Below, piece after piece: positions 26,499-27,241 of a DNA stretch of 64,000 nt. The translations under genes were made by a program, and so were the position numbers. The DNA is from Escherichia phage EC.P1: sequence record PQ657772.1; one strand, written 5' to 3'. Numbering within the stretch: the first letter of the stretch is position 1; every line of letters starts with the position of its first letter. Below the pieces are notes generated by a model. That model had not been told where the DNA came from, made no database searches, and saw nothing but the letters and a program-made list of their open reading frames with translations.

Positions 26499-26757
26499 AT
26501 AATCTCCTAGTGAAAAAAGCCAGATTCTTTCTTATATATTCGGCGACACAATCAGTAGTTTGTGTATTTGTGAATGCAACAACTTCATTCGATACACCAT
26601 TCCCATTACACAATGGACAAATCCCCATATACTTAGGTGTTGGAACTGTATCTAGTTTATATTTCCCTGAAGATATCATGTATTGTTGTGGTAATACATC
26701 CAAAGAAATAATATAATCTTCATCGAATTGCTTACAACATACCCAACATTTACTCAT
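26479..26757 (-). CDS. cysteine-rich zinc-binding protein (92 aa)
   Basis: CWVCC near N-terminus and CPLCNG later. Confidence 0.5.
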   Translation of the reverse strand: MSKCWVCCKQFDEDYIISLDVLPQQYMISSGKYKLDTVPTPKYMGICPLCNGNGVSNEVVAFTNTQTTDCVAEYIRKNLAFFTRRLYERENL

Positions 26758-27241
26758 TGTGGTTCTCCTTCAAAACAATTCTTATATCTTCGAATGTTTT
26801 AACAAACCAGTCATGTTCATCAGATACATCAACCACCTTCCCACCATAAACATAGTAATGATAGAAGGGTAACTTACTTTTCCTCAATCGTTCAGCAAGT
26901 TCTGGGTTTTGAAATATCTTAGCACATATTGCATCCTGGATACGAGAAATGCATTCGGGTGTCATTTCAATACGGTCGTGCATATACTTGTTCGCCGCTG
27001 CTTTTGCAGCAGCACCCGACACTTTTCTAAGATCATCATGTTTCTGGCCTGTTAAAAACCAAAAATAAAAAGTTTCTACCGATGGGAACCAACCATATGG
27101 TTCTAAGGTAAAACTATGTGAAGAAAAGTTAGATAGATCCCTACCTAACTTAGTCTTAGCTTTACTATAGATATTAATATGTCTGTATCCATCATCAGTA
27201 GGGTCAATATAGTTAAATGACTCTTCAGGAAATTCAAACAT
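26750..27241 (-). CDS. NADAR (YbiA-like) domain protein
   Basis: IYS...GRDLSNFS...EPYGWFPSVETFYFWF parallels YbiA FYS..GDFSNF..WPTSEHYFQAQKF. Confidence 0.6.
   Translation of the reverse strand: MFEFPEESFNYIDPTDDGYRHINIYSKAKTKLGRDLSNFSSHSFTLEPYGWFPSVETFYFWFLTGQKHDDLRKVSGAAAKAAANKYMHDRIEMTPECISRIQDAICAKIFQNPELAERLRKSKLPFYHYYVYGGKVVDVSDEHDWFVKTFEDIRIVLKENHNE

Follow-up and report, generated by a model that had tools for sequence, protein, structure and literature searches.

Within a 64,000-nucleotide stretch of DNA from an Asteriusvirus-type E. coli jumbo phage (hereafter the window, 64 kb out of a genome of roughly 360 kb), a short gene raises the question of whether these phages carry an enzyme of the NADAR superfamily and, if so, what such an enzyme would do. 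Recent work has proven that phage NADARs can serve as counter-defence enzymes, the case being AdfN against DarTG1. The AdfN protein of T4 (AdfN-T4, gp30.3) is a DNA ADP-ribosylglycohydrolase that is necessary and sufficient for the escape of T-even phages from DarTG1 and inactive against DarTG2 (PMC11825919). Its role against DarTG1 was confirmed by a transposon screen, and the same study found that a T4 macrodomain counters DarTG2. The initial annotation had placed a 163-aa NADAR protein at this locus and proposed an anti-DarTG or broader anti-ADP-ribosylation role for it. The ORF is present, and its strand, left unstated at the time, is the minus strand:

26750..27241, minus strand: NADAR gene, an ATG-to-stop ORF of 163 aa encoding a NADAR-fold, His-type 'phage NADAR' of a clade distinct from T4 gp30.3/AdfN

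This gene is real, not a chance ORF, and is under purifying selection. It is kept in 33 related jumbo-phage genomes, and the comparison with the ph0011 ortholog showed 84% identity at the DNA level and 93% at the protein level (dS = 1.46, dN = 0.043, dN/dS = 0.03). The codons of E56, L63, K80 and H128, on which the discussion below depends, were confirmed in the raw sequence. Over 2.2 kb around the gene, the identity to phage WPEC5 is 99.5% and that to the 121Q/PBECO4/Sharanji group about 82%. A 100%-identical ortholog is located at positions 273381-273869 of phage fEgEco12 (PP777464.1), where it is overlapped by a 'DNA primase/helicase' feature that looks like an annotation artefact.

The NADAR identity of the protein is visible only at the level of profiles and folds, where the sensitive tests agree with each other. 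The target did not match the Pfam NADAR model (PF08719) at E <= 10, a model reached weakly by two of 27 relatives (best E 0.024), and no NADAR match was obtained with NCBIfam or PADLOC, even at permissive thresholds. A precomputed NADAR domain was present in none of 29 relatives, and a single-sequence search of the PDB returned no NADAR, its sole match (E = 0.85) being an unrelated carboxylesterase. On the other hand, the family profile matched significantly in the PDB only the NADARs 8BAU (1.9e-4) and 2B3W (5.4e-4). The target belongs to phrog_652 at 3e-45, the same PHROG that contains T4 gp30.3 (9e-51), and an HHalign comparison between 176 members of the clade and 108 of the gp30.3 family gave a probability of 98.1% (E = 1.3e-13) over residues 22-131. 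Foldseek against viral models placed same-clade phage proteins at the top (TM up to 0.90), followed by many annotated viral NADARs, and in the GenBank record of phage Turkey3 the ortholog is already named 'NADAR domain-containing protein'. Moreover, an exhaustive HMM search collected about 2,100 representatives of relatives (50% identity clusters), of which 683 scored below 1e-30. The target has the NADAR fold. The family assignment of the initial annotation is supported, and the motifs that it quoted are all present (I24-Y25-S26, R34-D35-L36-S37-N38-F39 and WFPSVETFYFW, from W51 to W61). The 'NADAR signature' it saw in them holds by profile and fold, although it goes undetected by Pfam, NCBIfam and PADLOC.

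The conservation of the active-site residues was scored in 176 representatives of the clade. The positions concerned are the following:

27125..27136, minus strand: LSNF motif (L36-S37-N38-F39), 89-98% conserved and common to all NADAR families
27074..27076, minus strand: Glu56 codon (SVE motif), 100% conserved, equivalent to PnNADAR E43 and AdfN-T4 E36
27053..27055, minus strand: Leu63 codon (Glu+7), where other NADARs have a phosphate-binding Lys (PnNADAR K50, C7 DarG1 K95, AdfN-T4 K43)
27002..27004, minus strand: Lys80 codon (G..AK..G motif), 99% conserved, equivalent to PnNADAR K75 and E. coli C7 NADAR K115
26852..26860, minus strand: His128-Tyr129-Tyr130 (LPxxHYY), last beta-strand; H 99%, Y 98% and Y 98% conserved

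The LSNF motif of the target aligns to LSNF of 8BAU, FSNF of YbiA and LSNF of T4 AdfN, and its 'IYS', in the first beta-strand, is found as 'INFYS' in YbiA. The catalytic Glu that the superfamily carries after LSNF...S-x-E is E56 in the target, and its counterparts, PnNADAR E43 and AdfN-T4 E36, perform catalysis and bind the distal ribose (PMC11543638, PMC11825919). The phosphate-binding Lys at Glu+7 is absent, since the target presents L63 at this position. Across the 176 representatives the residue is S in 43, L in 40, G in 37, K in 15 and A in 14, whereas the Lys is 96% conserved in the gp30.3 family. This Lys coordinates the ADP-ribose phosphates and is essential in the E. coli C7 DarG1-NADAR (PMC11543638); in AdfN-T4 the equivalent K43 has been mutated, and the K43A variant keeps partial function (PMC11825919). 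The 8BAU counterpart of Lys80 is the first K of 'AKKLGR', and in the gp30.3 family 95 of the 108 members have K here. The corresponding K115 of C7 is needed to counter DarT1 in vivo and is dispensable for catalysis (PMC11543638). H128 directly precedes the predicted strand 129-132, and in the alignment it falls on H123, which is invariant in the gp30.3 family, including T4 AdfN.

Other positions of the site are also changed. In the Asteriusvirus subgroup, the equivalent of PnNADAR R79 is N84 (about 72% of the clade having R or K at this position) and that of W89 is I91. The residues R72, K80 and K108 are basic in 99-100% of the clade, and the covariation analysis for a residue offsetting the absent Lys gave a weak hint at K135 (n = 16, non-independent sequences). 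Furthermore, the clade presents invariant motifs of its own (DG..HINxYS, in fuller form DG..HINIYSK..T.LG, together with WYW, HYY and W145), and W59/Y60/W61, Y129/Y130 and W145 form a clade-specific aromatic-rich site.

The residue of the last strand defines the NADAR subfamily, being Glu in YbiA and canonical NADARs, Asp in the DarT1-linked DarG1 and His in the 'phage NADARs' represented by gp30.3 (PMC11125620, PMC11543638, PMC12945103). Since the target carries H128 instead of the last-strand Glu or Asp, it is a His-type phage NADAR and not 'YbiA-like' in the subfamily sense, which corrects the initial annotation. The canonical NADARs (PF08719), such as E. coli YbiA and PnNADAR (8BAU), have Glu there, and the PnNADAR residues K50, R79 and W89 have no equivalents in the target, whose C-terminal third, a beta-hairpin (YVYGGKVV) plus a long terminal helix, is not alignable to canonical NADAR sequences. 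The YbiA subfamily is found in bacterial riboflavin or SOS operons, whereas the target is in a phage small-gene array. The DarG1/BC4488-type antitoxins (G. lovleyi 8BAT, E. coli C7) have Asp as the last-strand residue, extend the core at the N-terminus and lie next to a DarT1 gene, and DarG1 of C7 has the Glu+7 Lys (K95). In contrast, the target has H128, lacks this Lys, starts its core at about residue 14 with no extra domain, and is a phage-borne orphan that has no ART gene beside it in the window, nor does one recur among the neighbour families listed for related loci.

The closest characterised relative is AdfN/T4 gp30.3 (PF08010, His-type). The target is a homolog of the gp30.3/AdfN family, whose Glu and His align with its own, and is not a gp30.3 ortholog. 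BLASTP found no similarity between the target and T4 gp30.3, and the target did not match the Phage_30_3 model (PF08010) at its gathering score, eight of 27 relatives matching it below threshold (best 20.4 bits vs a cutoff of 36). Both proteins consist of the NADAR core only, without extensions, in about 150-160 aa, and have in common LSNF, the catalytic Glu, G..AK..G and the invariant last-strand His. Both are also encoded in dense small-gene arrays of large myoviruses, with an 8-nt overlap with a neighbouring gene. However, gp30.3 has the Glu+7 Lys (K43) that the target lacks, and the clade of the target has its own motifs and is often fused to DUF4326, SLOG or Macro.

The phage groups that carry the two clades are complementary. 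gp30.3, with 1,511 records, is found mostly in T4-like Straboviridae, whereas the clade of the target (500-590 records, about 500-600 deposited phage genomes) is found in Asteriusvirus and other Rak2-like jumbo phages, in Ackermannviridae and in large phages of Erwinia, Ralstonia, Xanthomonas and Vibrio, its members being nearly all annotated as 'hypothetical'. The clade is almost entirely viral, with 13 non-phage copies (bacterial/MAG loci) in 185,579 species-representative genomes. The recurrent neighbours in these loci are DUF488-N3a and Macro, and no recurrent DarT-like neighbour appears among the neighbour families listed. A toxin-antitoxin origin of the clade was rejected on these two grounds, although a lone case may exist among the families seen only once beyond the first 25.

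Among 80 multidomain relatives, DUF4326 is present in 27 and SLOG-type domains in about 30, including YpsA (YAcAr SLOG in 21, plus 11 with DprA-like matches); Macro and DUF488-N3a are present in six each, and phosphoesterase or exonuclease domains in a few. These are exactly the fusions and neighbourhoods of the viral NADAR-SLOG-Macro-DUF4326 network, which is enriched in large myoviruses, as is the clade of the target. The target differs in having one domain only, and none of the partner domains was detected in its vicinity. Iyer, Burroughs, Anantharaman and Aravind (2022) predicted that this viral network processes soluble low-molecular-weight ADPr derivatives and not DNA adducts (PMC9503650). 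One metagenomic protein of 1,415 aa (P0124) holds a canonical Pfam NADAR (10-143), a domain of the clade (547-698) and DUF4326 (1185-1274), a pairing that suggests non-redundant substrates for the two NADAR types.

In Erwinia phage Special G (L007, 3974-4855), the 293-aa gp155 carries the clade NADAR domain at its N-terminus and a C-terminal extension with a SLOG (YAcAr) match below threshold (E = 1.3e-4, 22.1 bits vs a cutoff of 28.2). Its neighbours are gp154, annotated as 'putative phosphatase', and gp156, annotated as 'virion structural protein', and the BFVD label of its homolog in phage RAY is 'DprA-like protein'.

We infer the enzymatic activity, substrate, expression timing and counter-defence role of the target. 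An anti-DarTG1-type function is judged most likely because AdfN-T4 is the closest characterised relative. The explanation that we consider best, with about as much confidence as doubt, is that the target could be a stand-alone His-type NADAR-fold ADP-ribosyl N-glycohydrolase, a distant relative of AdfN, that would remove ADP-ribose from guanine in phage nucleic acid early in infection. Glu56 and His128 would orient the distal ribose and activate it, other basic residues (K80, R72 and K108 being candidates) would bind the pyrophosphate in place of the canonical Glu+7 Lys, and the N-glycosidic bond between ADP-ribose and the nucleobase (guanine N2) would be cut on phage nucleic acid. The modification made by a DarT1-type host ADP-ribosyltransferase would be reversed in this way, allowing replication in E. 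coli that carries DarTG1. The interpretation of the initial annotation is supported in this form, as a predicted function and with a DarTG1-type system, and not DarTG2, as the expected target.

Several observations go against this explanation. The Lys that is essential in C7 DarG1-NADAR and nearly invariant in gp30.3 is missing and its position is variable across the clade, R79 and W89 likewise have no equivalents in the Asteriusvirus subgroup, and the target is missed by both Pfam models. The main fusion partners (DUF4326, SLOG and DUF488-N3a) belong to a network argued to target soluble ADPr derivatives (PMC9503650), the two NADAR domains of P0124 point to different substrates, and the few bacterial loci have no recurrent DarT-like neighbour among the families listed. 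Moreover, both guanine-ADPr removal from DNA and neutralisation of DarTG1 but not of DarTG2 are documented only for the T4, Bas32 and Bas60 proteins (PMC11825919), none of the three in the clade of the target. [quoted passage not shown]

Because of the missing Lys, the fusion network and the tandem of a canonical and a clade NADAR, the alternatives with a soluble ADPr signal or another adduct as substrate stay alive. It is possible, though we hold this tentatively, that the 'HYY' clade is a functionally distinct NADAR family with a substrate other than guanine-ADPr DNA (another base, RNA or a soluble ADPr immune signal), as the loss of the canonical Lys, the gain of the aromatic-rich site and the one case of coexistence with a canonical NADAR in the same polypeptide may indicate. 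Among the specific versions, an action on soluble ADP-ribose-derived molecules and not on DNA adducts (TIR/Thoeris-type cADPR isomers, other ADPr-conjugate immune signals or ADPr by-products) seems unlikely. The enzyme would perform one step of the NADAR-SLOG-Macro-DUF4326 degradation pathway of other phages, here on its own. Both the fusions of the multidomain relatives and the recurrence of DUF488-N3a and Macro beside the bacterial/MAG loci agree with this, as does the prediction of low-molecular-weight ADPr substrates (PMC9503650), and the remodelled pyrophosphate site (no Glu+7 Lys; N84 and I91) could reflect a different ligand. Nevertheless, the same prediction covered phage NADARs generally, and T4 gp30.3 acts on DNA (PMC11825919); no NADAR has been reported to cleave a soluble immune signal; and the target stands alone, no separate SLOG, Macro or DUF4326 gene having been detected in the 64-kb window by a search of limited sensitivity. 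We regard as rather improbable a nucleic-acid target unlike that of T4 AdfN, whether RNA (G-ADPr RNA or CmdT-type mRNA adenine-ADPr), cytidine-ADPr or another base. NADARs can act on G-ADPr in RNA as well, and C-ADPr is removed by some of them (PMC12945103); the aromatic-rich site without the Glu+7 Lys and the double NADAR of P0124 would fit such a specificity. However, in the published assays the His-type (T4) and Asp-type NADARs are G-specific, and C-ADPr removal is tied to the Glu-type (PMC12945103).

Two other readings receive very little weight. The target could have the NADAR fold but little or no catalytic activity, and sequester or shield ADP-ribose or ADP-ribosylated targets by binding them without hydrolysis, given that the Lys essential for hydrolysis in the C7 NADAR is lost (PMC11543638), along with the R79 and W89 equivalents. 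But the conservation of Glu56, His128 and Lys80 (99-100%) in a family of about 2,100 clusters and the dN/dS of 0.03 are the pattern of an active enzyme, and AdfN-T4 functions in part without K43 (PMC11825919). It is just as hard to see the target as an N-glycosidase with a metabolic or housekeeping role, such as that of YbiA in riboflavin-intermediate damage control, or as a regulator that removes marks set by an ART of the phage itself, since the last strand bears His and not the YbiA-defining Glu, riboflavin or ART genes were not seen nearby, and the clade is viral but for the 13 loci mentioned above.

Systems of this kind are already known, and domains like this one have been counted among the NADARs by specialists. 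The modest novelty lies in a poorly annotated clade with an altered active site, which escapes the Pfam NADAR and gp30.3 models and spans E. coli jumbo phages and therapeutically used Ackermannviridae. Judging from its sequence, the target is a plausible counter-defence gene in a little-studied branch of a known family. Since the supposedly essential Lys is absent, the clade would test how much of the NADAR active site is required, as well as the substrate range between clades. If the clade neutralises DarTG1, this would help to explain the host range of these phages; if it has a distinct substrate, jumbo phages and Ackermannviridae would gain counter-defence against a system other than DarTG1. 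The NADAR-Macro fusions might be read as combined anti-DarT1 and anti-DarT2 tools.

Transcription of the NADAR gene would probably be early, by the host RNA polymerase, within a polycistronic block. The gene is one of about 80 small genes, most of them unannotated, in a long array on the same strand, bordered on one side by replication genes (gyrase, Pol III subunits and a DnaQ-like exonuclease) and on the other by a tRNA/small-ORF block. The features around it are:

27242..27258, minus strand: Shine-Dalgarno-like purine-rich stretch, 5'-GGUGAAGAAGAGUAAUU-AUG, read from the sequence
26750..26757, minus strand: last 8 nt of the NADAR gene, overlapped by the beginning of the downstream 92-aa ORF (26479-26757), from the ORF coordinates
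28774..28794, minus strand: terminator-like hairpin (9-bp stem, then a T-run), a consensus match directly upstream of the six-gene block
31191..31219, minus strand: nearest upstream perfect sigma70 promoter, TTGACA-17-TATAAT

The 8-nt overlap indicates a polycistronic, tightly packed block of six genes from 28755 to 26262. The stop codon of the upstream gene (27244-27246) is 2 nt ahead of the NADAR start codon, and the translation of both genes may be coupled. Eight perfect promoters (TTGACA-N16-18-TATAAT) were found on the minus strand, at 6093, 10410, 10554, 15172, 17032, 26176, 31219 and 49417, and none on the plus strand in the 64 kb, where the base composition predicts about 0.08 per strand. 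The eight minus-strand promoters are a strong sign of an early region transcribed by the host RNA polymerase, the timing being deduced from promoters only, which counts against the explanation that we favour.

With respect to neighbours, those of the target are in common only with jumbo phage CBB and not with T4, CBA120 (where the clade homolog is between rIIB and topoisomerase II) or Special G. Since no neighbour is kept beyond CBB, the NADAR gene behaves as a stand-alone module without a conserved operon partner, and it is the single NADAR-type gene found in the window. AdfN-T4 needs a phage cofactor, and for this reason coupled neighbours such as the 92-aa ORF are of possible interest. This ORF (26479-26757, minus strand) is Cys-rich (CxxC...CxxC) and zinc-ribbon-like, and matched no family.

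Directly upstream of the NADAR gene, 27244-27597 (minus strand) encodes a 117-aa protein with N-terminal hydrophobic segments and 26% identity to a 'putative membrane protein' of phage CBB. The ph0011 version of this protein bears the label 'WWE domain'; neither that version nor the one in the window matches Pfam WWE, so the label was discarded as a link to ADP-ribose binding. Further upstream, 30452-31141 and 28803-30448 (both minus strand) encode a DnaQ-like exonuclease, a 364-aa membrane protein and a LemA-like protein, a block kept in phage CBB. A weak resemblance (E = 6e-4) links the DnaQ-like exonuclease to the N-terminal extension of another NADAR fusion, P0160. On the downstream side, positions 26118-26276 contain a 78-bp tandem duplication (2.1 copies, 96% match), which makes a repeat inside the ORF 26021-26227. 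Each copy carries a near-perfect or perfect minus-strand sigma70 promoter (26254 and 26176), and close relatives present an indel of roughly 77 bp at this duplication (2,124 vs 2,201 bp matched).
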